In this document: piece after piece, positions 72 to 10,853 of the stretch
Layout of the letters: the number at the start of each line of letters is the position of its first letter
How positions within the stretch are numbered: the stretch's first letter is position 1
Assembly: GCA_005881175.1 (NCBI GenBank)
Contig: VBEN01000015.1
Location: forward strand, 1 to 57,037
From: Chloroflexota bacterium
GTDB lineage: Bacteria > Chloroflexota > Dormibacteria > CF-121
Reading direction: 5' to 3'
DNA: 57,037 nucleotides
Program-made: the position numbers and the translations under genes
The notes under the pieces: generated by a model
Seen by the model: only the letters and a program-made list of their open reading frames with translations
Told to the model about the DNA's origin: nothing
Database searches by the model: none

Positions 72-950
72 ATGGCCCGGTCTATGTGGCGAGGCGCGAT
101 CAGTTTCGGGATGGTGGCGATCCCCATAAGGATGTACCTTGCCACCGAGGCGCACAGCGCGGTCTCCTTCCGCCAGCTCTGCCCCCACTGCCAGCTGCCG
201 ATCAAGCAGCAGCGCCATTGCCCCACCGACGACCATGTGGTGGCTTTCAATGAGGTGTTGAAGGGATACGAGGTCGGAAAGAACCAGTTCGTCATCATCG
301 ACGAAGAAGACCTGGACAAGCTGCCGCTCAAGACCACCAAGACGATCGACATCGTGGAGTTCGTCGAGCGCAACGAAGTCCCGCTCGGTCTGTACGTCAA
401 GAGCGCCTACTACCTCGAGCCGGAGGATGTGGGGGTCAAACCGTTCTTTCTCTTGAAGAGGGCGCTCGAGGATACCAATAAGGTGGCAGTCGCCAAGATA
501 GCCCTGCGCGATCGAGAGCATCTCTCCCTGATCCAGGTCGAAGGCGACACCCTGCTCTGCAACACGCTCAACTGGCCCGACGAGATCCGCTCGACGCAGG
601 AGCTCAATCTGCCGCAGAACGTCAAGATCAGTGACAAGGAGGTCGCGATGGCCACCTCTCTGATCGACAACCTGACGGATAGTTTCAAGCCGGAACGCTA
701 CACCGACGACTACAAGGCCGCCTTCCAGCAGATCGTCGACCAGAAGATGAAGGGGCTCCAAGTCGTGACGCCAACCCCCGCCGAGGAGCCACGGGTGATG
801 GACCTGATGGCTGCCCTGAAGGCGTCGGTCGAGGCGACCAAGCAAGGGAAGAAGCCGGCCGCCCGGCCGGCCGCGTCGAAAGCCGCGAAGGTGAAGGTGG
901 CTGCCAAAACGTCGGCGGCCCGGCCCGCGGCCCGACGGCGCACGGCCTAG
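72..950 (+). CDS. ku: Ku protein (bacterial NHEJ DNA end-binding) with a Lys/Ala-rich basic C-terminal tail
   Basis: N-terminus MARSMWRGAISFGMVAIPIRMYLATE is the bacterial Ku signature. It is followed by KGYEV...IIDEEDL, and the tail is KQGKKPAARPAASKAAKVKVAAK. Confidence 0.9.
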   Translation: MARSMWRGAISFGMVAIPIRMYLATEAHSAVSFRQLCPHCQLPIKQQRHCPTDDHVVAFNEVLKGYEVGKNQFVIIDEEDLDKLPLKTTKTIDIVEFVERNEVPLGLYVKSAYYLEPEDVGVKPFFLLKRALEDTNKVAVAKIALRDREHLSLIQVEGDTLLCNTLNWPDEIRSTQELNLPQNVKISDKEVAMATSLIDNLTDSFKPERYTDDYKAAFQQIVDQKMKGLQVVTPTPAEEPRVMDLMAALKASVEATKQGKKPAARPAASKAAKVKVAAKTSAARPAARRRTA

Positions 951-975: not shown

Positions 976-2034
976 ATGCCGTCGCGTTCGCAAACGGTTG
1001 AGCTCGACCTGCCCTTCGAGCGGGTGCTACCCGACCGACTTCGGCCGATGCTTCCGATGACGGCGGCCGCGCCCTTTGACTCCTCCGAATACGCCTTCGA
1101 TGTCGCCTGGGATGGCGTGCGCGCGCTGGCCTCGGTCGACCGTGACCGGGTTGGCCTGTGGGGTCGAACGCTGCTGGACCTGACGGGACGATACCCCGAG
1201 GTTCAAGTGCTGGCCAATCTGCTCCCGCCTGAAACCATTGTCGACGGCGAGCTGATCGTCGCCGACCCAGAGGGTCGGCCGGATGCCGTAGCGCTGGCCA
1301 GGCGGCAGCAGACGGCGCACCCGGAGGCGGTGGCCCGAGCCGCCGCCGCGCAGCCCGTCACCTATGTCGTCCACGACCTCCTCTACTTGCGCGGCCGGTC
1401 CTGGCTGAGAGAGCCGCTGGTCCGCCGCCGTCCCCGACTGAACGACGTGCTGCAATCTTCCGGCCGGATCTATGTCGTGGAACCGGTTGCCGACGACGGA
1501 CTGGCATTTTTCGACGCGGCTCGGGAAAAGGGCCTGGAGGGGGTGATCGCCAAACGGTTCGACAGTCCCTACCGGGCGGGCCAGCGCCACCCGGATTGGC
1601 TGCTGATCGAAGCGGTGCGCCGCCAGGATTTCGTCGTCATCGGTTTCATACCCCAGGCCGGTGATCCGCTGCTCGAGGCACTGATCGTGGGGACCCACGA
1701 TGGGCGAACGATCCACCCCGCCGGTCGTGTTGGTGGCGGCTTCGACAACGCCACCTCCCAGCGCTTGCGCAAGGCGCTGGATGCGCTGGCCGGTAGCGCC
1801 GGCCCGGACGATTCGCGGTGGATTGATGACCGGATCTGCTGGGTCCAGCCAAAAATCGTGGTGTCGGTCAAATTCAGCGAGTGGGATCTCAAGGGACAGC
1901 TACGCTTTCCGATCTTCAGCCGGTTACGGCCCGAAGTCGCGCCCGAGGAATGCGTGCGCACGCCGATGGTCGAACCCCCGCTGCGGTCGAGACCACGACT
2001 CGTCGACATTCAGCTTCCGCGCCTGCCGCTCTAG
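976..2034 (+). CDS. ATP-dependent DNA ligase-like protein (LigD/LigC ligase-domain family). The motif I lysine is absent, so it is possibly catalytically dead.
   Basis: Motifs III (VDGELIV), IIIa (VVHDLLYLRG) and IV (LEGVIAKR) plus an OB-fold tail are present. Motif I reads AWDGVR instead of KxDGxR. Motif V reads WLLIE instead of WxKxK. Confidence 0.8.
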   Translation: MPSRSQTVELDLPFERVLPDRLRPMLPMTAAAPFDSSEYAFDVAWDGVRALASVDRDRVGLWGRTLLDLTGRYPEVQVLANLLPPETIVDGELIVADPEGRPDAVALARRQQTAHPEAVARAAAAQPVTYVVHDLLYLRGRSWLREPLVRRRPRLNDVLQSSGRIYVVEPVADDGLAFFDAAREKGLEGVIAKRFDSPYRAGQRHPDWLLIEAVRRQDFVVIGFIPQAGDPLLEALIVGTHDGRTIHPAGRVGGGFDNATSQRLRKALDALAGSAGPDDSRWIDDRICWVQPKIVVSVKFSEWDLKGQLRFPIFSRLRPEVAPEECVRTPMVEPPLRSRPRLVDIQLPRLPL

Positions 2035-2065: not shown

Positions 2066-2551
2066 GTGTCGATCGCGGACAAGGTGGTGGTGCGCCTTCG
2101 CGTCAATGGCGAAGACACCGCGATCATGGCGCCGCCCTATAAAACCCTGCTCGAGGTCCTTCGCGAAGATCTGGGCCTGACCGGCACCAAGCACGGCTGC
2201 GAGTTGGGAGAGTGCTCGATGTGCGGGGTGCTCGTCGACGGTAAGCCTTTTCTGTCATGCCTGGCGATGCCGCTCGACCTGGAAGGCCGCGAGGTGACGA
2301 CCATCGAAGGCATGCCGCGAGGCCGCGAGCTGCATCCCCTCCAGGTTGCGTTTGCCGAGCTCGGGGCCGCGCAATGCGGCTACTGCACGCCCGCCATGCT
2401 GCTGACCGCCAAGGCCCTGCTCGACCGCGAGCCGCGGCCGTCGCGCGAGGCGATCAAGGATGCCCTCTCGGGGGTTCTCTGCCGCTGTACCGGGTACCTG
2501 AAGATCTTCGAGGCGGTCGAGCTGGCAGCGTCGAGAGCCACACGTGGCTGA
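2066..2551 (+). CDS. (2Fe-2S)-binding small subunit of a xanthine dehydrogenase/CoxS/HcrC-family molybdenum hydroxylase
   Basis: Contains GCELGECSMCGV, CGYCTPAM and CRCTGY cysteine motifs. At 161 aa it is followed by the Mo subunit with an 8-nt overlap. Confidence 0.9.
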   Translation: MSIADKVVVRLRVNGEDTAIMAPPYKTLLEVLREDLGLTGTKHGCELGECSMCGVLVDGKPFLSCLAMPLDLEGREVTTIEGMPRGRELHPLQVAFAELGAAQCGYCTPAMLLTAKALLDREPRPSREAIKDALSGVLCRCTGYLKIFEAVELAASRATRG

Positions 2552-4895
2552 GTTTTCCGTCGTCGGCAAGCCGCTGACCAAGCCCGACGCCTACGCCAAG
2601 GTCAGCGGCCAGACAAAGTTTGCCGACGATCTGTCGCTGCCGCGCATGCTCTACGGCCGGATTCTGCGGAGTCCCTACCCGCACGCCCGGATCCTGCGGG
2701 TTGACCCATCACGCGCGCAGACCCTTCCCGGAGTGCTGGCCGTGCTGACCGGCGATGATCTCCCGGTGAAGTTCGGCATCCTCCCGGTCAGCCAGGACGA
2801 GGAGGCGCTCGCCCGCGACAAGGTTCGGTACGTGGGCGATCCGATCGCGGCAGTGGCCGCCACGGACGAGTGGGTCGCCGATGAAGCGCTGGACCTGATC
2901 GACGTGCAGTTCACCGAACTGCCGCATTTCATGTCGATCCCACAGGCACTGGCCGGCGAGGGTGAGCCGATCCACGGCACCTCGAACGTGCACAAGGCCG
3001 TGGCCCTCGAGTTCGGTGATACCGAGGCCGCAATGCGGGCCGCTGATCACGTGCGAGAAGACGTCGTCTTCTTCGAAGGCAACACACATCTCCCGATGGA
3101 GCAGCACGCCGCGCTCGCCCAGTATGCGGCCGACGGCAAGCTCACCCTCTGGACCTCATCGCAGACCCCGCACTACGTGCATCGCGCGCTGGGCAAGGTG
3201 CTCGACCTACCGATGAGCCGGATCCGCGTGATCGCCACGCCGAATGGCGGCGGATTCGGTGGCAAGAGCGACATCTTCTCGCACGAGCTCGTCGCCGCCA
3301 AGCTCGCCATCGCCACCGGGCGGCCGGTGAAGATCACCCTCACGCGCGAGGAAGTCTTCTATGCCCACCGCGGACGCCACCCGGTGCTGATGAAGGTCAG
3401 GACCGGGTTCACGCGCAGCGGGCGGATTACCGGCATGCAGTTTCAGAGCTTCCTCGATGGCGGCGGTTACGGCAGCTACGGGGTCGCGAGCACCTACTAC
3501 ACGGGCGCGTTGCAGGCCACGACCTACGCCATCCCGCGATACCGGTTCGAAGGCGTGCGGCTCTTCACGAACAAGCCGCCCTGCGGTCCCAAGCGCGGGC
3601 ACGGCACGCCGCAGCCGCGGTTTGCGCTGGAAGTCCATCTCGACAAAGTCGCCGAAGAACTGGGACTCGATCCCGTCGAGATTCGCCGCCGCAATTTGCC
3701 GAAGTCCGACTCGCGCACGGTCAACTGGTTGCGGATCACGAGCTGCGGACTTACGGACTGCATTAATAAGGTTGTCGAGGGCTCCCGCTTCCTGGAACGG
3801 CGAACCTCGATGCCGCGGGGGCGTGGCCTCGGCTTCGCGGTCAGCTCCTACCTGAGTGGTGCCGGCACCGCCATTTACTGGAACGACATGCCCCACTCAG
3901 AGGTCCAGCTGAAGCTCGACCGCAATGGCGGGGTCGCGCTACTGTGTGGGGCGATCGACATCGGCCAGGGCTCGGACCACATCCTGGCGGCGATCGTCGC
4001 CGAAGTCCTTGGAGTCGCGATCGATGACATCCAGCTGACAACCGCCGATACCGACTTGACCCCGATCGATCTGGGCAGCTACTCGTCACGGGTCACCTTC
4101 ATGGCGGGCAATGCTGCGAAGGCTGCCGCGGAAAACGTTCGCGACCGGCTGTTTGCCGTAGCTGCGACGGCTCTGCATTGTGATGCGGAGGAGCTCGTCG
4201 CGCGCGACCGCCGAATCTTCCGCCTCAACCGGCCGGCCGACGGGCTGTCCTTCGCCCAGGTGGTGCAGCTTGCCGAGGGGGAAGGCGGGGTGGTCACTGG
4301 TAGCGGGAGCTACACCCCGCCGAAGCTCGCCGGGCCGTACAAGGGAGCCGGGGTTGGACCGAGCCCCGCCTACTCCTATTCAGCGGCCGTCGTCGAGGTC
4401 GATTGCGACCTCAAGACCGGCGAGGTGAAGGTTCCCGAGGTCTGGATCGCCCACGACATCGGACGCGCCATCAACCCCATGCTGGTGATCGGCCAGGTGG
4501 AGGGCAGCGTCTACATGGCGTTGGGCGAGGCGCTGATGGAGGAACAGACATTCCGTCTCGGACTGCACAAGTTTCCTTCGCTGCTCGAGTACAAGAGTCC
4601 GACGGCGCTGGAGGCGCCGGTGATGCACACGTACCTGGTCGAAACGATCGATCGCGAGGGCCCGTTTGGCGCAAAGGAAGCGGGCCAGGGACCGCTGCTG
4701 CCGGTCATCCCGGCCGTGGCCAACGCCATCTACAACGCGCTTGGGATTCGCATCGATGAGATTCCCATTACGCCCGACAAGGTGCTGAAGGCGCTGAACG
4801 CCCGCGACAAGCGTGTCGGGCCGAAAACGGTGCCGGCCTTCGCGTTTCCGCCGCTGATAAAGGCCGAGGTCCCACCAGAGTGGAAAGGTAAGTAG
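2544..4895 (+). CDS. Molybdopterin-binding large subunit, xanthine dehydrogenase/aldehyde oxidase family (HcrA/CoxL-like; not a CO dehydrogenase)
   Basis: 783 aa with the a/b-hammerhead N-terminus (KFADDLSLPRMLYGRILRSPYPHARI), GGGFGGK and a PFGAKEAGQGP C-terminal motif. Confidence 0.9.
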   Translation: MAEFSVVGKPLTKPDAYAKVSGQTKFADDLSLPRMLYGRILRSPYPHARILRVDPSRAQTLPGVLAVLTGDDLPVKFGILPVSQDEEALARDKVRYVGDPIAAVAATDEWVADEALDLIDVQFTELPHFMSIPQALAGEGEPIHGTSNVHKAVALEFGDTEAAMRAADHVREDVVFFEGNTHLPMEQHAALAQYAADGKLTLWTSSQTPHYVHRALGKVLDLPMSRIRVIATPNGGGFGGKSDIFSHELVAAKLAIATGRPVKITLTREEVFYAHRGRHPVLMKVRTGFTRSGRITGMQFQSFLDGGGYGSYGVASTYYTGALQATTYAIPRYRFEGVRLFTNKPPCGPKRGHGTPQPRFALEVHLDKVAEELGLDPVEIRRRNLPKSDSRTVNWLRITSCGLTDCINKVVEGSRFLERRTSMPRGRGLGFAVSSYLSGAGTAIYWNDMPHSEVQLKLDRNGGVALLCGAIDIGQGSDHILAAIVAEVLGVAIDDIQLTTADTDLTPIDLGSYSSRVTFMAGNAAKAAAENVRDRLFAVAATALHCDAEELVARDRRIFRLNRPADGLSFAQVVQLAEGEGGVVTGSGSYTPPKLAGPYKGAGVGPSPAYSYSAAVVEVDCDLKTGEVKVPEVWIAHDIGRAINPMLVIGQVEGSVYMALGEALMEEQTFRLGLHKFPSLLEYKSPTALEAPVMHTYLVETIDREGPFGAKEAGQGPLLPVIPAVANAIYNALGIRIDEIPITPDKVLKALNARDKRVGPKTVPAFAFPPLIKAEVPPEWKGK

Positions 4896-5926
4896 TGCTG
4901 CGGCTGCCGCGGCTTCAATACCTACGGCCACGATCGGTTAGCGAGGCCTGCGACATGGCGGCATCGCAGCCCGGAGCCATGTTCATCGCCGGCGGCACCG
5001 ACCTGGTGCCGAATCTGAAGCGCCGGCAATTCGATGTGCCGGCGCTGATCAGCCTCAGCGCGCTTTCGGGCATGCGGCTGATCGCCGGCGACGCCAAAGA
5101 CGGGCTGACGATCGGGGCGGGGGCGACGCTCGATGAACTGGCGCACCATCCCGCGCTGAACGGCCCGTATCGCGCGCTCGCCCAGGCGTGCGACCTGGTG
5201 TCAACTCCCCAGGTTCGCTGCATGGGGACGCTGGGCGGCAATCTTCTGGTCGACCCTCGCTGCAACTACTACAACCAGACCTACAGCTGGCGAAAAGCCG
5301 TCGGGTTCTGCTTGAAGAAAGACGGCGACATCTGCCTTGTGGCCCGCAGCTCGCCGCGGTGCTGGGCGGTGTCATCATCGGACAGCGCGCCGGTGGCGCT
5401 GGCCCTGAACGCGACCGTGGTATTGCACGGCGTTGGCGGCGAGCGTCGCATTCGCGCCGACGACCTCTATAAGGATGACGGCATCGACTACACAACCAAA
5501 CGTGCCGATGAGGTCATCACCTCGCTGCACGTCCCAGCGTCGAAAGAAAGGATGACGAGTGCCTACTGGAAGCTGCGTCGCCGGCCGGCCTTCGACTTCC
5601 CAATCCTCGGCGTGGCCGTTGCGCTGAGCTGGGACGATGGGATGGTGCAGACCGCACGCGGTGCGCTCGGGGCCGTTGGGTCGCGCCCGGTCGACATCAC
5701 CCCATTTCTCGGGCCTTTAACCGGAAGCCGCCCTGATGACAGGCTGATTGCCGAGGTGGCGGACGGGGCCGATAAACCGGCGCGGCCGCTGGATAACACC
5801 GACCTCAGCCACTACTGGCGCAAACGGATGACACGGGTCTACATCGAGCGGGCGCTGCGAGACGCCTGCGGTCTCCCGCCGGTCGAGGGACGACTCAGCG
5901 CCCAGGTCAAGGCGAGCTCAATGTAA
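4895..5926 (+). CDS. FAD-binding medium subunit (CoxM/HcrB-like) carrying a 4-Cys insertion
   Basis: Shows the FAD-binding PCMH pattern (FIAGGTDLVPNLK). The insertion is CNYYNQTYSWRKAVGFCLKKDGDICLVARSSPRC at nt 5261-5362. Its start overlaps the stop of the large subunit. Confidence 0.85.
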   Translation: MLRLPRLQYLRPRSVSEACDMAASQPGAMFIAGGTDLVPNLKRRQFDVPALISLSALSGMRLIAGDAKDGLTIGAGATLDELAHHPALNGPYRALAQACDLVSTPQVRCMGTLGGNLLVDPRCNYYNQTYSWRKAVGFCLKKDGDICLVARSSPRCWAVSSSDSAPVALALNATVVLHGVGGERRIRADDLYKDDGIDYTTKRADEVITSLHVPASKERMTSAYWKLRRRPAFDFPILGVAVALSWDDGMVQTARGALGAVGSRPVDITPFLGPLTGSRPDDRLIAEVADGADKPARPLDNTDLSHYWRKRMTRVYIERALRDACGLPPVEGRLSAQVKASSM

Positions 5927-6379: not shown

Positions 6380-8338
6380 TTACCTTGCAGGAACCGATTG
6401 GGCGGCAATGTAGACGTTCTGATCGTTGACGGGCACTCCGTCAGGAGTAATCGCGCCGCAGACCGAAGGCGGCGTGGCGATTGTCCCGGGGCTTGCACCT
6501 GGGCATGCGAACAGGTCAGGGTCACGCGTATCCGACCAGAAGGGATACGCGTTGTCGACGGCAGACAGCCCGGCATAGTCACCCCAGAAGGTGCTGTAGG
6601 TGCCTTCGGGGAACTGAGTCGGAATGGGCATGGAAGAGCTGCTCACTCGCTGAATGCCAAAGGTTGTGAAGGGAGCCGAGCCACCCGAGATGCTTACGTC
6701 CGAGTATCCGGTCACTTCATCGGTTCCATACTGGCGGTCGTAATAGGACGTGGCGAGCTTCCCGTTCTTGGTGAAGGCGATCCACTGGAACCACTGATCG
6801 GTCGTCGCCTGCCCGGGCTCCTGGGTTGCGCTTGTCAGCGCTCGCGGGTCGGTCGTGGTCCCCGTGAACGTCTGGCCGCCGTCGTTTGAGACGCTCAAGA
6901 GGATGTCGTCGTTGCAGGCCCCCGGCGTTTTAACGCCGGTGAAGAGGTTCTGGCCCGTAACCGGGCTGGTGCCCGTCGGCGTGCAGCCGTTCGACTCCTT
7001 TGAATGCTGGTTGATATACGAGCCGAACGCGACGACCACCTGGTTCGGGTTCGTGGGGTTGACCGCGCCCGATCCGTAGTTCGTCGCCCGGAAGATCGAA
7101 TTGTTGGTCGCAGCTTTCTCCGGGACGCAGGCTCGGAAATTGTCGTGGCCACCCTGGTATGTGGCGCAGTCCGGCAGGTCGTAGAAGTCGGTGACCTTGA
7201 CCAAGCCGCTGAAGGTCACTCCGCCGTCGATGGACCTGGCCAGGAGAATCTGGTTGCGGTTGTCCGGTCCACCGAGCGTTTGACCATTATTGAAGTTGTT
7301 GAAGATAACGTACAGCACGCCGTCAGGACCAACGAAAGGTTGCGAGAACTGGTTCTCATTGCAGCCGCCGACGGCCAATCCGTAGTCGTTGACGCAGAGC
7401 GGGCTGTTGAGGCTGACCAGGTGGCGCGGTGAGAAGTGCTCGCCGTAGTCCGACGAGTACGCCTCGTAGATGAACGCCGTCCCATTGGGGGCAAACTCCG
7501 TCCAGGTGACGTAGATGCGATCCTGGAACGGGGTGCAGCTCGCTCCCGGCGTGGCGACCGTGGTACCCGCAGCGCAGGCGTTTGCGTTGTTGTCGACCGC
7601 CATGAACTGCTTGTCTTGAAGCGGAAGAAAGTTCCCGGTTGTGTTGTTTGATTCGATCACTGGCCGGCCGGGGAAGTTGAACGAGGCACCAAAGTTCTGG
7701 GTGGAACGGAAGACATACAGACCGTTGGATTGATCGATGTCACCAGTCGTGGCCCGGCCACGCTTGAACATCTGACATGACAAATAGGCGTTGCCCTTTG
7801 AGTCCCAAGCCACTGACGTATCGCCCGAAGCCTGGAAATACTCGCGCGGCCGCTGGATGAACGTACCGCGAACGAAGTTATTGGGCACGGTTGTCTCATT
7901 CCAGGTCCGACCCTTGTCGAGGCTGTAGGAGACTCCACAGGTCGCGTCGCCACGGCGATAGTCGTTGTAGCTGGCGATCAGATGGTTCGGCTGATTCGGG
8001 TCCTGAGCGACGTAGGTTTCGTTCTGGGCCTGGCTACGTCCCTGCAAATCTGGATCGCTAAGGTTCAGGCAATTCTGGTTGACCTTGATGTTCGAGCTCT
8101 GGTTGACCGGACAGGCGTCGCTTCCGCGTGGGAAGTAACTCGTCGGCTTTGAACCTCCGTCGCTGCCGTTGGACCCCAGCTCGTGAGAAGCGAACCCCGA
8201 GATGATCCTGGCCTGGATGTCATTGAGCTCGTCATCGATCTGCGGCACGGTCGCCTGTACGTTGCTCAGGCCCGGCTGGAATATCAAAAGACCCGCCACC
8301 GGCAGCGCCGTAATTAGCCGAAGCAAGCGCGACTTCAT
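6380..8338 (-). CDS. Secreted BNR/Asp-box repeat protein (sialidase-superfamily beta-propeller-like)
   Basis: Signal peptide MKSRLLRLITALPVAGLLIFQPGLSNVQA. Asp-boxes are SLDKGRTW, SIDGGVTF and SNDGGQTF. The protein is Asn/Ser/Thr-rich with many paired Cys. Confidence 0.8.
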   Translation of the reverse strand: MKSRLLRLITALPVAGLLIFQPGLSNVQATVPQIDDELNDIQARIISGFASHELGSNGSDGGSKPTSYFPRGSDACPVNQSSNIKVNQNCLNLSDPDLQGRSQAQNETYVAQDPNQPNHLIASYNDYRRGDATCGVSYSLDKGRTWNETTVPNNFVRGTFIQRPREYFQASGDTSVAWDSKGNAYLSCQMFKRGRATTGDIDQSNGLYVFRSTQNFGASFNFPGRPVIESNNTTGNFLPLQDKQFMAVDNNANACAAGTTVATPGASCTPFQDRIYVTWTEFAPNGTAFIYEAYSSDYGEHFSPRHLVSLNSPLCVNDYGLAVGGCNENQFSQPFVGPDGVLYVIFNNFNNGQTLGGPDNRNQILLARSIDGGVTFSGLVKVTDFYDLPDCATYQGGHDNFRACVPEKAATNNSIFRATNYGSGAVNPTNPNQVVVAFGSYINQHSKESNGCTPTGTSPVTGQNLFTGVKTPGACNDDILLSVSNDGGQTFTGTTTDPRALTSATQEPGQATTDQWFQWIAFTKNGKLATSYYDRQYGTDEVTGYSDVSISGGSAPFTTFGIQRVSSSSMPIPTQFPEGTYSTFWGDYAGLSAVDNAYPFWSDTRDPDLFACPGASPGTIATPPSVCGAITPDGVPVNDQNVYIAAQSVPAR

Positions 8339-8540: not shown

Positions 8541-10853
8541 GTGGCCTTCGCCTACGGCTTGGGGGCGCGGGTGCGCCGTCGCGAAGACCCTCGGTTGATC
8601 ACCGGCGCCGGCACCTACCTCGACGACCTGCGCCCGGCCGGCCTCTGCCACCTGGTCTTCGTGCGCAGCTATCTGCCGCACGCCAACATTGAGGCGATCG
8701 ACCTGGCCGCCGCCCGCTCGGCGCCCGGGGTGATCGCGGTGGTCACGGCCATCGACATGAAGGGCGCTCCGACCTTCCCGGTGAGCGGGCCGAAGGGCAG
8801 CCGGCTCCCGGAACGTCCCCTTCTCAACGGCGATCGGGTGCGCTTCAGCGGCGACCTGATCGGTTTCATCATCGCGGAAACGCGGGAGCAGGCGCGCGAC
8901 GCGGCCGATCTCATCGCGGTTGAGCTCGACGCGCGTCCGGTCGTCACCGACCCGCTGGCCGCGGCCGACCCGGGCACCGCGCTTATCCACGAGGGCCTTG
9001 GAACGAATATCGCCGATGAATCGACCCGGATCTGGGGTGATGTCGAGGCGGCGTTTAGGGGTGCCCACCGTGTCGTGCGGGCTCGCATTCGCAATCAGCG
9101 TCTGGCCGGCATACCGATCGAGACTCGCGGCGTGGTTGCCACCGCCAACCGCTGGGAGCCGTCGGTCACAGTCTGGTCGGCGACACAGATTCCGCACGGC
9201 GTCCGCGACGAGGTTGCGACCTTCCTCGGCCTGCCCCAGTCCGCGGTACGGGTGATCGCGCCTGAAGTCGGCGGCGGCTTCGGCGCCAAGTTGTCGGTCT
9301 ATCCCGAGGAACTCCTCGTGCCCTGGGCCGCGATGCGATTGGCTCGCCCGGTGAAGTGGGTCGAGGACCGGAGCGAACACTTGCAGGCAACCACTCACGG
9401 CCGCGACCAGATCCACGATGCGGAACTGGCGGTGAGTGCCGATGGAAGCCTGCGCGGGCTCAAGGTGCGGCTGACCGCTGACCTGGGCGCTTACCCAATG
9501 GGCGTCGGACTCCCCCGATTGACCCGCCGGCTTCTGTGCGGCTGTTACCGCCTGCCGGCCCTGCAGGTGGACATCCGGAGTGTGTACACGAACAAGACAC
9601 CGATCGCGGCCTATCGCGGCGCCGGCCGGCCGGAGGCGATCTTCCTGATCGAGCGGATGATCGATCTCGCCGCCCGTGAACTGGGCATCGATCCCGCTGC
9701 CATGCGCCGGCGCAACCTGCTTCCCGCATTTGACGAGCCGACCGCCACCATCAGCGGCGAGCTGTACGACAGCGGCAACTATCCAGCCGTCCTGGAGCGA
9801 GCCCTCACGGTCGCCGGCTACGACCAGCTCCGCGCCAACCAACAGCAGGCTCGCCAGGCAGGTCGGCTCGTCGGCATTGGGGTCTCGTCCTATGTCGAGA
9901 TGGCGGGCTTCGGTCCCGAAGGTGAGCTTTTCGAGAGCGCCACTGTTCGGGCGAATGCGGACGGCGGGATCACGGTCGTCACCGGGACCTCGCCGCACGG
10001 CCAGGGCCACGAAACCGCCTGGTCGCAACTCGTGGCTGTGGAGCTCGGCGTTGCGCCGGATCAGATCATGGTCATGCACGGCGACACCGCAACCGTGCCG
10101 ATCGGCGTCGGCACATTCGGCAGCCGGAGCGCGGCAGTCGGCGGCACGGCGGTCCACCTCGCGGCGGGCGACGTCCGAGATAAGGCGCGCCTCCTCGCAG
10201 CCCATCTGCTGGAGGCGGCGCCGGCCGATATCGTTCTGAACGATGGACAGTGGCAGGTTCGCGGCGTGCCGGGGCGGGCGGTAACGTTTTCGGCGATCGC
10301 GAAGGCGGCGTATGGCGGCGCCCGGCCGGCGGGGATGGAGGCCGGCCTGGAATCCACTCGGTATTTCCAGCCGCCCGGCATGGTTTTCCCCTTCGGGGCG
10401 CACGTGGCCGTCGTCGAAGTCGACCCGGAGACGGGCTCGGTCACGCTGCAGCGCTACATCTCAGTCGATGACTGCGGCCGCGTGCTCAACCCGTTGCTGG
10501 TCGAAGGCCAGGTCCACGGCGGGCTGGCGCAGGGCATCGCGCAGGCCCTCTACGAAGAGGTCGCCTATGGCCCCGACGGATCGCTGCTCAGCGGGAACCT
10601 GACAACCTACATGATCCCGACCGCGCCAGACCTGCCGAGTTTTACTCTGGACCGAACCGTCACGCCAAGTTCGGTCAACCCACTGGGCGTCAAGGGCGTG
10701 GGTGAGAGCGCCACCATCGGCTCGACGCCGACCATCGTGAACGCGGTCGTCGATGCCCTGGGGCCACTGGGGGTGCTGGAGATTGATCCACCCTGCTCGC
10801 CCGAGAAGGTATGGCGCGCCATCGAGTCGGCGCGAAAGCGGCTCGAGCGTTGA
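8541..10853 (+). CDS. Stand-alone xanthine dehydrogenase-family Mo-binding subunit, form-II CoxL-like
   Basis: N-terminus RRREDPRLITGAGTYLDDL. The AYRGAGR active-site loop is at nt 9609-9629. No adjacent 2Fe-2S or FAD subunit genes. Confidence 0.9.
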   Translation: MAFAYGLGARVRRREDPRLITGAGTYLDDLRPAGLCHLVFVRSYLPHANIEAIDLAAARSAPGVIAVVTAIDMKGAPTFPVSGPKGSRLPERPLLNGDRVRFSGDLIGFIIAETREQARDAADLIAVELDARPVVTDPLAAADPGTALIHEGLGTNIADESTRIWGDVEAAFRGAHRVVRARIRNQRLAGIPIETRGVVATANRWEPSVTVWSATQIPHGVRDEVATFLGLPQSAVRVIAPEVGGGFGAKLSVYPEELLVPWAAMRLARPVKWVEDRSEHLQATTHGRDQIHDAELAVSADGSLRGLKVRLTADLGAYPMGVGLPRLTRRLLCGCYRLPALQVDIRSVYTNKTPIAAYRGAGRPEAIFLIERMIDLAARELGIDPAAMRRRNLLPAFDEPTATISGELYDSGNYPAVLERALTVAGYDQLRANQQQARQAGRLVGIGVSSYVEMAGFGPEGELFESATVRANADGGITVVTGTSPHGQGHETAWSQLVAVELGVAPDQIMVMHGDTATVPIGVGTFGSRSAAVGGTAVHLAAGDVRDKARLLAAHLLEAAPADIVLNDGQWQVRGVPGRAVTFSAIAKAAYGGARPAGMEAGLESTRYFQPPGMVFPFGAHVAVVEVDPETGSVTLQRYISVDDCGRVLNPLLVEGQVHGGLAQGIAQALYEEVAYGPDGSLLSGNLTTYMIPTAPDLPSFTLDRTVTPSSVNPLGVKGVGESATIGSTPTIVNAVVDALGPLGVLEIDPPCSPEKVWRAIESARKRLER

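Follow-up and report, generated by a model that had tools for sequence, protein, structure and literature searches.

A LigD-type ligase-domain protein without the AMP-accepting lysine, encoded next to ku in Candidatus Dormibacteraeota, as a putative non-catalytic partner of Ku

Non-homologous end joining (NHEJ) in bacteria is usually described as having two components, Ku and the catalytic LigD. Here we describe a gene that lies directly downstream of ku in a 57,037-nucleotide stretch of DNA from a Chloroflexota bacterium (GenBank assembly GCA_005881175.1, contig VBEN01000015.1, positions 1 to 57,037 of the forward strand; this whole stretch is hereafter called the window). It encodes a LigD-type ligase domain in which the AMP-accepting lysine of motif I and both lysines of motif V have been replaced. 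With a probability of roughly 0.6, the gene product is a paralogue of LigD's ligase domain that has lost catalysis and that a soil lineage of Candidatus Dormibacteraeota has kept as an operon partner of Ku, where it would act with Ku in a scaffold or end-binding role. The original prediction, made from the letters of the window, that the gene encodes a pseudo-enzyme and not a random pseudogene is supported: no motif I lysine was found in the alignment, and no relaxed selection was found in the orthologues. The two genes are located as follows.

72 to 950, forward strand: ku, encoding a bacterial Ku of 292 amino acids with a Lys-rich C-terminal tail (PF02735, 1.2e-40; TIGR02772 Ku_bact, 278 bits against a cutoff of 150)
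976 to 2034, forward strand: the lysine-less LigD-type ligase-domain gene, 352 amino acids (PF01068, 3.9e-26; PF04679, 2.1e-17)

The second gene lies on the same strand as ku, with ku upstream and a gap of 25 nt between the ku stop and its open reading frame (ORF), and it is open throughout its 352 codons of protein, as had been stated before. The protein is composed of a nucleotidyltransferase (NTase) domain (residues ~25–215) and an OB domain (~216–325) with disordered tails at both ends; the Pol and PE domains are absent from it. Its best match among the NCBIfam models is TIGR02779 (NHEJ_ligase_lig) at 214.8 bits, which is below the cutoff of 227.75 for that model. When compared with solved structures by phmmer, the top matches are the ligase domain of Mycobacterium tuberculosis (Mtu) LigD (6nhx, 1vs0, and 6nhz; E 1e-33 to 1e-32). 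An AlphaFold2 model built from a 72-sequence alignment gives the NTase and OB block a predicted local distance difference test (pLDDT) score of mostly 85–93, while residues 1–31 and 332–352 are disordered (pLDDT <50 for 332–352). Foldseek matches this model to archaeal ATP-dependent ligases and to the Mtu LigD ligase domain with a probability of 1.00. The ligase fold of the protein is predicted to be intact.

Among the 5.8 billion proteins that were searched, 475 matched at E≤1e-10, and the best 120 of them were taken as the orthologue set (63–99% identity; 293–353 amino acids, most of them 324–353). These 120 orthologues are referred to below as the lysine-less family, and residue numbers are positions in the 352-residue window protein. 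Their assemblies are those of ENA, JGI, NCBI, and Logan; sources with a name are metagenome-assembled genomes (MAGs) of Candidatus Dormibacteraeota, with older labels reading "Chloroflexi bacterium". For the comparison of residues, the orthologues and 129 lysine-containing cluster representatives were aligned to one hidden Markov model (hmmalign). The motifs of the window protein are the following.

1105 to 1122, forward strand: motif I, AWDGVR instead of KxDGxR, with Ala44 in place of the AMP-accepting lysine (phmmer, hmmalign)
1159 to 1179, forward strand: motif Ia region, WGRTLLD, with Arg64 kept (100% in the lysine-less family, 98% in lysine-containing relatives)
1243 to 1260, forward strand: motif III, DGELIV, with Asp90, Gly91, and Glu92 kept (D90 and G91 invariant, E92 99%)
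1363 to 1389, forward strand: motif IIIa, YVVHDLLYL, the usual adenine-stacking Phe being replaced by Tyr or His in the family (conservation counts)
1537 to 1554, forward strand: motif IV, EGVIAK, with Lys193 invariant and Glu188 present here (conservation counts)
1597 to 1611, forward strand: motif V, WLLIE instead of WxKxK, the second lysine being replaced by a conserved acidic residue (alignment, conservation)
1903 to 1938, forward strand: equivalent of motif VI in the OB domain (RFPIFSRLRPEV), without the usual R-x-D-K ending (alignment)

The first step of nucleotidyl transfer requires the lysine of motif I, and a motif V lysine helps to reorient the AMP between the steps (PMC8656161, PMC7470946). 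Nucleotides 1105–1122 of the window read GCC TGG GAT GGC GTG CGC, with the Ala44 codon GCC at 1105–1107. The motif I coordinates of the original prediction are exact, and its register is secured by two alignments: phmmer pairs "afdvAWDGVRal" with "afegKWDGYRll", which places Ala44 opposite the nucleophile K481 of Mtu LigD, and hmmalign shows lysine in that column in 129/129 lysine-containing representatives. A misplaced registration of motif I is thus excluded. The codon is three base changes away from lysine, and it was rightly argued that a single-base error does not account for it. The motif V assignment held as well: TGG CTG CTG ATC GAA at nucleotides 1597–1611 encodes WLLIE, and "dWLLiEav" pairs with "sWVKdKhw" of Mtu LigD, whose two lysines are conserved in 98% and 86% of the lysine-containing relatives. 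The first lysine of the window protein is residue 185, in agreement with the claim that the first ~180 residues contain none. In total, the protein has 6 Lys and 41 Arg; this shortage is more than a mere effect of high GC content because the adjacent Ku has 25 Lys.

Lysine is absent from the motif I position in the whole family (0/120), where Ala (89%), Ser (7%), Thr (3%), or Val (1%) is found instead, so that the state noted for the window protein has proved to be conserved among orthologues. Both motif V lysines are lost in 120/120, with L, Q, or A at position 210 and E (50%) or D (47%) at position 212. The state shared by all 120 orthologues, together with the synonymous variation of the alanine codon between GCC and GCG (TCC, encoding Ser, in one locus), means that the lysine-less state is due neither to chance nor to a sequencing error. 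The codons of Asp46, Glu188, and positions 210 and 212 differ non-synonymously between species.

In canonical ligases, the Asp of motif I and the Glu of motif IV take part in catalysis, and the Arg of motif Ia contacts a DNA phosphate. In the lysine-less family, position 46 is D in 81% and otherwise mostly H, E, or Q (also N), compared with 95% D in the lysine-containing relatives, and position 188 is E (55%), G (23%), S (10%), or D (8%; also Q), compared with 99% E. The drift of both residues across the family strengthens the pseudo-enzyme reading. The window protein itself has both D46 and E188, so the statement that motifs III, IIIa, and IV and the OB domain look intact stands for this protein; it does not extend to the family, where the motif IV Glu (and also the motif I Asp) varies. 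Position 133, which is F in 100% of the lysine-containing relatives, is Y in 83% and H in 16% of the lysine-less family. With R49 and K193 (both 100%) and E92 it completes the adenosine-contact residues that are found in the family.

The comparison was extended to the 48 positions that are ≥85% conserved among the 129 lysine-containing representatives. The lysine-less family clearly differs at K44, F104 (variable), K210, K212, G253, and T304; D46 and E188 are relaxed, and F133 (Y/H) and D320 (E) represent conservative swaps. Retained are all Gly, Pro, Trp, Tyr, and Arg positions of the fold, as well as Gly47, Arg49, R64, D90-G91-E92, K193, Arg204, and Arg310. The losses thus concern the residues of nucleotidyl transfer, whereas the scaffold has been kept together with the adenosine contacts and the Arg of motif Ia. 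Residues that are invariant in the family and specific to it are His205, Trp62, Tyr166, and Asp304; in the place of His205 (100%), the lysine-containing relatives have Ser or Thr.

A relocated lysine was considered as a candidate substitute and rejected: K193 of motif IV is the only invariant Lys, and in every other column Lys reaches at most 84% of the family.

The gene is found intact wherever its locus is complete. In a scan of the GTDB species-representative genomes (best 80 of more than 580 matches; loci labelled L0xx), the lysine-less family occurs in at least 10 species among the matches listed (L011–L020, 56–88% identity), and 11/11 complete loci (nine of L011–L020, L001, and the window) contain an intact ORF of 348–352 amino acids. 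At least 4 independent metagenome contigs carry a gene for a protein identical to that of the window. Selection was measured as the ratio of non-synonymous to synonymous substitution rates (dN/dS, Nei-Gojobori) in the two pairs with unsaturated dS, which gave 0.114 (window and L011, dS 0.55) and 0.115 (L018 and L019, dS 0.27); for the NTase domain alone, the ratio is 0.055–0.13. Close pairs of a catalytically intact sister family give 0.02 to 0.2, and because the lysine-less gene falls within this range there is no sign of relaxed selection, which had been named as the finding that would speak for a decaying gene. On these comparisons of sequences, the gene is kept intact by selection and is not decaying.

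The gene order is the same in all window-type loci, namely GTP cyclohydrolase I, DUF72, Ku, the lysine-less ligase, and CoxS/L/M-like genes, and their Ku proteins are 77–97% identical to the window Ku. The lysine-less gene directly follows ku in every window-type locus in which the upstream flank is present, even where dS is saturated. The DUF72 gene (PF01904) always lies directly upstream of ku (e.g., L003 5749–9566 and L011–L019), and nucleotides 1–71 of the window lie just downstream of it. A tblastn search with the sequences of a full LigD and of a LigC-like protein found neither a Pol or PE domain nor a second ligase anywhere in the 57-kb window, and none was found within 6–10 kb on either side in the window-type loci of 10 related species. 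A single ENA contig encodes a protein of 635 amino acids (P0301) in which Ku is fused in frame to the lysine-less ligase through the spacer. The probable cause is an indel in the Lys-rich tail of Ku, whether real or introduced during assembly, and as a single case the protein provides no evidence of a natural fusion.

The closest relatives place the loss of lysine in a broader setting. When the library was clustered at 50% identity, the lysine-less family collapsed into a single representative. The next clusters (41–45% identity) are P0122 of the Dormibacteraeota, which has kept the lysine, and P0123, P0124, and P0125, in which it has become R, A, and N, respectively; more lysine-less clusters among the top 150 are P0129 and P0152 (L), P0131 (R), P0135 (A), and P0171 (M). 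Among the matches listed, about 50 GTDB species of Dormibacteraeota have a member of the P0122 family, one of them being Candidatus Nephthysia bennettiae JAEKNP01. This family is the closest lysine-containing relative (~343 amino acids, 43–45% identity), and its gene also lies directly 3′ of ku, in a different context and next to a Ku that is 52–57% identical to the window Ku. It shares with the lysine-less family the RFPIF...RPEV variant of motif VI, the position of an N-terminal motif, and a C-terminal ending of hydrophobic residues and Pro. Unlike in the lysine-less family, the catalytic set K, D, R, E, E, K, K, K is complete in most of its members. No assembly among the GTDB matches listed carried both the window-type gene and a gene of the P0122 type.

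In a neighbour-joining (NJ) tree with 100 bootstraps, the lysine-less family, P0124, and the R and N types form one group (support 67), and the P0122 family (support 100) is sister to this group in a joint clade with a support of 87. P0129, P0152, and L081 form a separate lysine-less group (support 98), and L062, in which K has become R along with further losses, lies inside the P0122 family; the separate group and L062 indicate further independent losses. Seven other species of the P0122 family (L051, L056, L063, L066, L068, L069, and L075) keep K44 and have lost the motif III Glu and/or the motif V lysines. Catalytic decay is thus recurrent in this Ku-linked standalone subfamily, which suggests that catalysis is dispensable for the role under selection.

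The other natural lysine-less proteins (K to R in P0123, L046, L050, and L057; K to N in P0125/L007; K to A in P0124 and L081; K to L in P0129 and P0152) have the same fold and no motif I lysine, and those examined are without intact motif V lysines. They are Ku-linked where the locus was examined, and several join the window family in the NJ tree. They differ from it in being only 37–45% identical to it, in lacking the motif III Glu in several cases, and in adjoining a gene for a canonical LigD or PE-Lig protein. In the Candidatus Dormibacteria MAG GCA_054639015.1 (L007), on a contig of 2.47 Mb, Ku is followed by a lysine-less gene of the N type and a full LigD (LigD_N, ligase, Prim-Pol; 896 amino acids), and another standalone ligase is encoded 8 kb upstream. 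In L046, L050, and L057, the order is Ku, a lysine-less gene of the R type, and a ligase gene with the canonical lysine; in L046, the latter encodes a PE-Lig protein of 538 amino acids according to Pfam. A lysine-less gene of the A type adjoins a Ku-LigD pair in a Chloroflexia MAG, and in the MAG DASQAY01 a window-type gene (L019) occurs together with a complete PE-Lig-Pol LigD (L089, 878 amino acids) that is encoded on a different contig.

Two side observations concern these genomes. In L007 (1855–2895 and 11073–13763), three genes of the ligase family surround one ku within 21 kb, encoding a LigC-like standalone ligase of 346 amino acids, the lysine-less N-type protein, and a full PE-Lig-Pol LigD. 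Near-identical Ku-ligase loci of the Dormibacteraeota type occur in SMAG_U* MAGs (e.g., L019/L089 of DASQAY01, L048, L057, L059, L064, and L074) whose record titles name unrelated taxa, i.e., Eisenbacteria, Verrucomicrobiia, Solibacter, Acidoferrum, and Nitrosotalea; these organism names look unreliable, or the bins look mixed.

The nearest known counterpart of the protein is the ligase domain of LigD (Mtu LigD residues ~450–759; 1vs0, 6nhx, 6nhz), with which it shares the NTase and OB architecture, ~31–38% identity, and an adjacent ku, and of which the family has kept the Arg of motif Ia, the DGE of motif III, motif IIIa, the Lys of motif IV, and the Gly and Arg of motif I. It is distinguished by the missing lysines of motifs I and V, by the unfixed motif I Asp and motif IV Glu, by a score below the TIGR02779 cutoff, and by extra conserved terminal peptides; moreover, it is not fused to Pol or PE. 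The window-type loci resemble the usual Ku-LigD module of NHEJ in the adjacency and co-orientation of ku, and depart from it in that a Prim-Pol or phosphoesterase is neither fused nor nearby.

From the loss of the AMP-accepting lysine and of the two lysines of motif V, together with the drift of the catalytic Asp and Glu, we infer that the protein cannot self-adenylylate and hence would be unable to run the three-step ligation. Instead, it may bind DNA ends or nicks held by Ku in a structural or bridging capacity, with its conserved terminal peptides possibly serving to recruit partners. Another ligase would then make the phosphodiester bond, such as LigA, a LigC-like enzyme, or a full LigD from a different locus. 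Lysine mutants of LigD and Lig4 that were made in the laboratory still support end joining, and the protein may be their natural counterpart. Repair in cells is promoted by human Lig4 K273A, which also stimulates joining by Lig3 (PMC9638927), and for M. smegmatis LigD K484A a repair efficiency comparable to that of a polymerase mutant, with lower fidelity, is stated in PMC12848934. In both cases, a ligase without its nucleophile supports joining and another ligase seals, namely Lig3 in the human case and, reportedly, the back-up ligase LigC in mycobacteria (work by Aniukwu et al. in 2008). Important to note here is that those two are engineered point mutants of enzymes that are complete in other respects, whereas the lysine-less family shows a natural and ancient loss of several residues that has become fixed in a lineage.

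The recruitment of partners is proposed on the basis of two short linear motifs in the tails, the conservation of which was counted in 63 full-length orthologues.

1000 to 1017, forward strand: short linear motif E9-L-D-L-P-F14 near the N-terminus, within an extension predicted to be disordered
2014 to 2031, forward strand: C-terminal short linear motif L347-P-R-L-P-L352, at the tip of the disordered tail

In the N-terminal motif, E, L, D, and L are conserved in 100%, P in 98%, and F in 92%, in a region with a pLDDT of ~28. In the C-terminal motif, P348 and L350 are conserved in 100% and L347 in 90%, and the final residue is I, L, or M. The lysine-containing sister family has DQLQIEL at the same N-terminal place and ends in TRFPF. 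Judged by this conservation, the two tail peptides look like docking motifs. ELDLPF resembles the beta-clamp-binding hexapeptide, QLxLxL (QLSLPL in Hda). Several full-length LigDs of the GTDB scan end in RQ[RQ]LPxL.

Contigs of soil metatranscriptomes (four runs, Logan) align to nucleotides 303–591 of ku with 95–100% identity and, with the same range of identity, to 1035–1304, 1140–1290, 1312–1462, 1543–1721, and 1584–1828 of the lysine-less gene. The first of these latter pieces spans motif I, where the sole change is a synonymous T to C at 1113.

Several points weigh against a dead scaffold for Ku. DNA binding, Ku binding, and the lack of adenylylation are all inferred from sequence. A second ATP-dependent ligase, which would have to seal the break, is encoded neither in the 57-kb window nor near the gene in the 10 related species, and the sole co-occurrence of a window-type gene with a full LigD (DASQAY01) rests on a metagenomic bin. 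The protein evolves 3–5 times faster than Ku, the dN/dS of which is 0.02–0.05 in the same pairs. The RNA support is thin (depth ~2); the parent study also includes the DNA, and carry-over of DNA is possible. Finally, the retained adenosine contacts (R49, E92, Y/H133, and K193) could point to a function that depends on nucleotides.

The last point leads to the idea that the protein is still an enzyme, either with a non-canonical nucleophile (Lys193 or His205) or for a late step only, acting on DNA that has been adenylylated by another enzyme. The adenosine contacts, the complete and family-specific conservation of His205, and the strong constraint on the NTase domain (dN/dS 0.055–0.13) are in its favour, and lysine mutants of the Chlorella virus ligase can reportedly close a pre-adenylylated nick, according to work of the Shuman laboratory. 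However, hydrophobic and acidic residues have replaced the motif V lysines, the variation of the motif I Asp (D/H/E/Q/N) and motif IV Glu (E/G/S/D/Q) would be unexpected at a working active site, and His205 lies in a loop with pLDDT <50 and is Ser in the R-, N-, and A-type (P0124) lysine-less groups, and a remaining catalytic role is unlikely. A slightly better case, although still an unlikely one, can be made for a negative regulator, in which the dead ligase would sit on Ku-bound ends or nicks to protect them and would block or delay their sealing or processing, for example to restrain mutagenic NHEJ during growth. This builds on the same facts of the sequence as the scaffold role (the kept fold and motif Ia Arg, the lost catalysis, and the ku operon); a dead enzyme that binds the substrate is a natural competitive inhibitor, and no catalytic ligase is encoded nearby in the window-type lineage. 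The related lysine-less genes that lie between ku and a canonical LigD-type gene, on one strand and with short gaps, have a layout that fits co-operation better, and joining is promoted, not blocked, by the lysine mutants of LigD and Lig4 that were made in the laboratory. By computation, the negative regulator and the positive scaffold are inseparable.

It seems improbable that the protein has taken on a new function outside end joining and independent of Ku, for example as a regulator binding nucleotides or nucleic acids, with the adjacency to ku as a historical leftover. The synteny block includes housekeeping genes (GTP cyclohydrolase I, DUF72, and CoxSML-like), so that co-location alone is no proof, and no Pol or PE genes are found nearby. 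Yet the adjacency of ku and ligase (~25 nt gap) recurs in at least three genomic contexts (window-type, P0122-type, and R/N-type), and a functional pair is favoured over chance because it recurs in different contexts. Decay into a pseudogene, or an artefact of sequencing or assembly, is refuted. The essential catalytic residues are missing, the TIGR02779 score is below its cutoff, and some records read "hypothetical protein", but the state is shared by 120/120 orthologous clusters from independent ENA, JGI, NCBI, and Logan assemblies, the ORFs are intact with a conserved length and a dN/dS of ~0.11, an identical sequence is present on at least 4 independent contigs, and K to A requires three base changes.

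Beyond the reading of the gene as a dead partner of Ku, we tentatively put forward a more general idea, which has less in its favour: bacteria may have evolved, more than once, a dedicated dead ligase as a structural subunit of Ku, akin to the non-catalytic synapsis role of the eukaryotic Lig4-XRCC4. Such a subunit would hold Ku-bound ends together, and its terminal peptides (ELDLPF at the N-terminus, LPxLP[ILF] at the C-terminus) would recruit another factor such as a catalytic ligase or the beta sliding clamp. In the window lineage, it may be the only Ku-linked "ligase".

A natural lysine-less, inactive, or pseudo-enzyme protein of the LigD type was not found described in the openly searchable literature, which is consistent with the remark in the original prediction that no lysine-less Ku-linked ligase was known to it. 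No such description was found in a structural review of LigD, a review of ligase diversity, a comparative survey of NHEJ, a paper on NHEJ in Streptomyces, and a metagenome paper on Antarctic DNA repair. No NCBIfam model captures the lysine-less proteins above its cutoff, and their public annotations read "LigD", "DNA ligase", or "hypothetical protein". The new part is thus a putatively dead paralogue of the LigD ligase domain that is conserved and paired with Ku; its function is proposed from conservation and gene order.

If true, a naturally dead protein of the ligase fold that is conserved with Ku would be a third kind of NHEJ component. It would also provide natural evidence for a structural job of the ligase body, which has so far been shown only by engineered lysine mutants of Lig4 and LigD. 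Working ligases may be overcounted where the capacity for NHEJ is judged from genomes of Dormibacteraeota and related soil phyla. Catalytic decay, repeated and independent, in the Ku-linked subfamily represents a ready-made natural mutational series for experiments, and the lysine-less family makes the structural role of an NHEJ ligase testable in a natural system.

PADLOC gave no match for Ku or the lysine-less protein and thus recognised neither as a component of anti-phage defence, and a promoter and terminator scan of nucleotides 1–2600 returned nothing informative. Downstream, an operon resembling CoxS/CoxL/CoxM molybdenum hydroxylases occupies 2066–5926 and begins 31 nt after the stop codon of the lysine-less gene. 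The domain calls for this region (Fer2/Fer2_2, Ald_Xan_dh_C with MoCoBD, and FAD_binding_5) were read from L003, which has an identical ligase gene and matching spacing. On the reverse strand, 6380–8338 holds an ORF of 652 amino acids with an N-terminal, signal-like hydrophobic segment, the position of which is kept in identical contigs; it has no confident Pfam family, and its L003 equivalent has a faint match to Reelin_subrepeat-B. A second large-subunit gene, 2.6 kb beyond the Cox operon, and then an FAA-hydrolase gene follow at 8541–10853, again according to the calls from L003.

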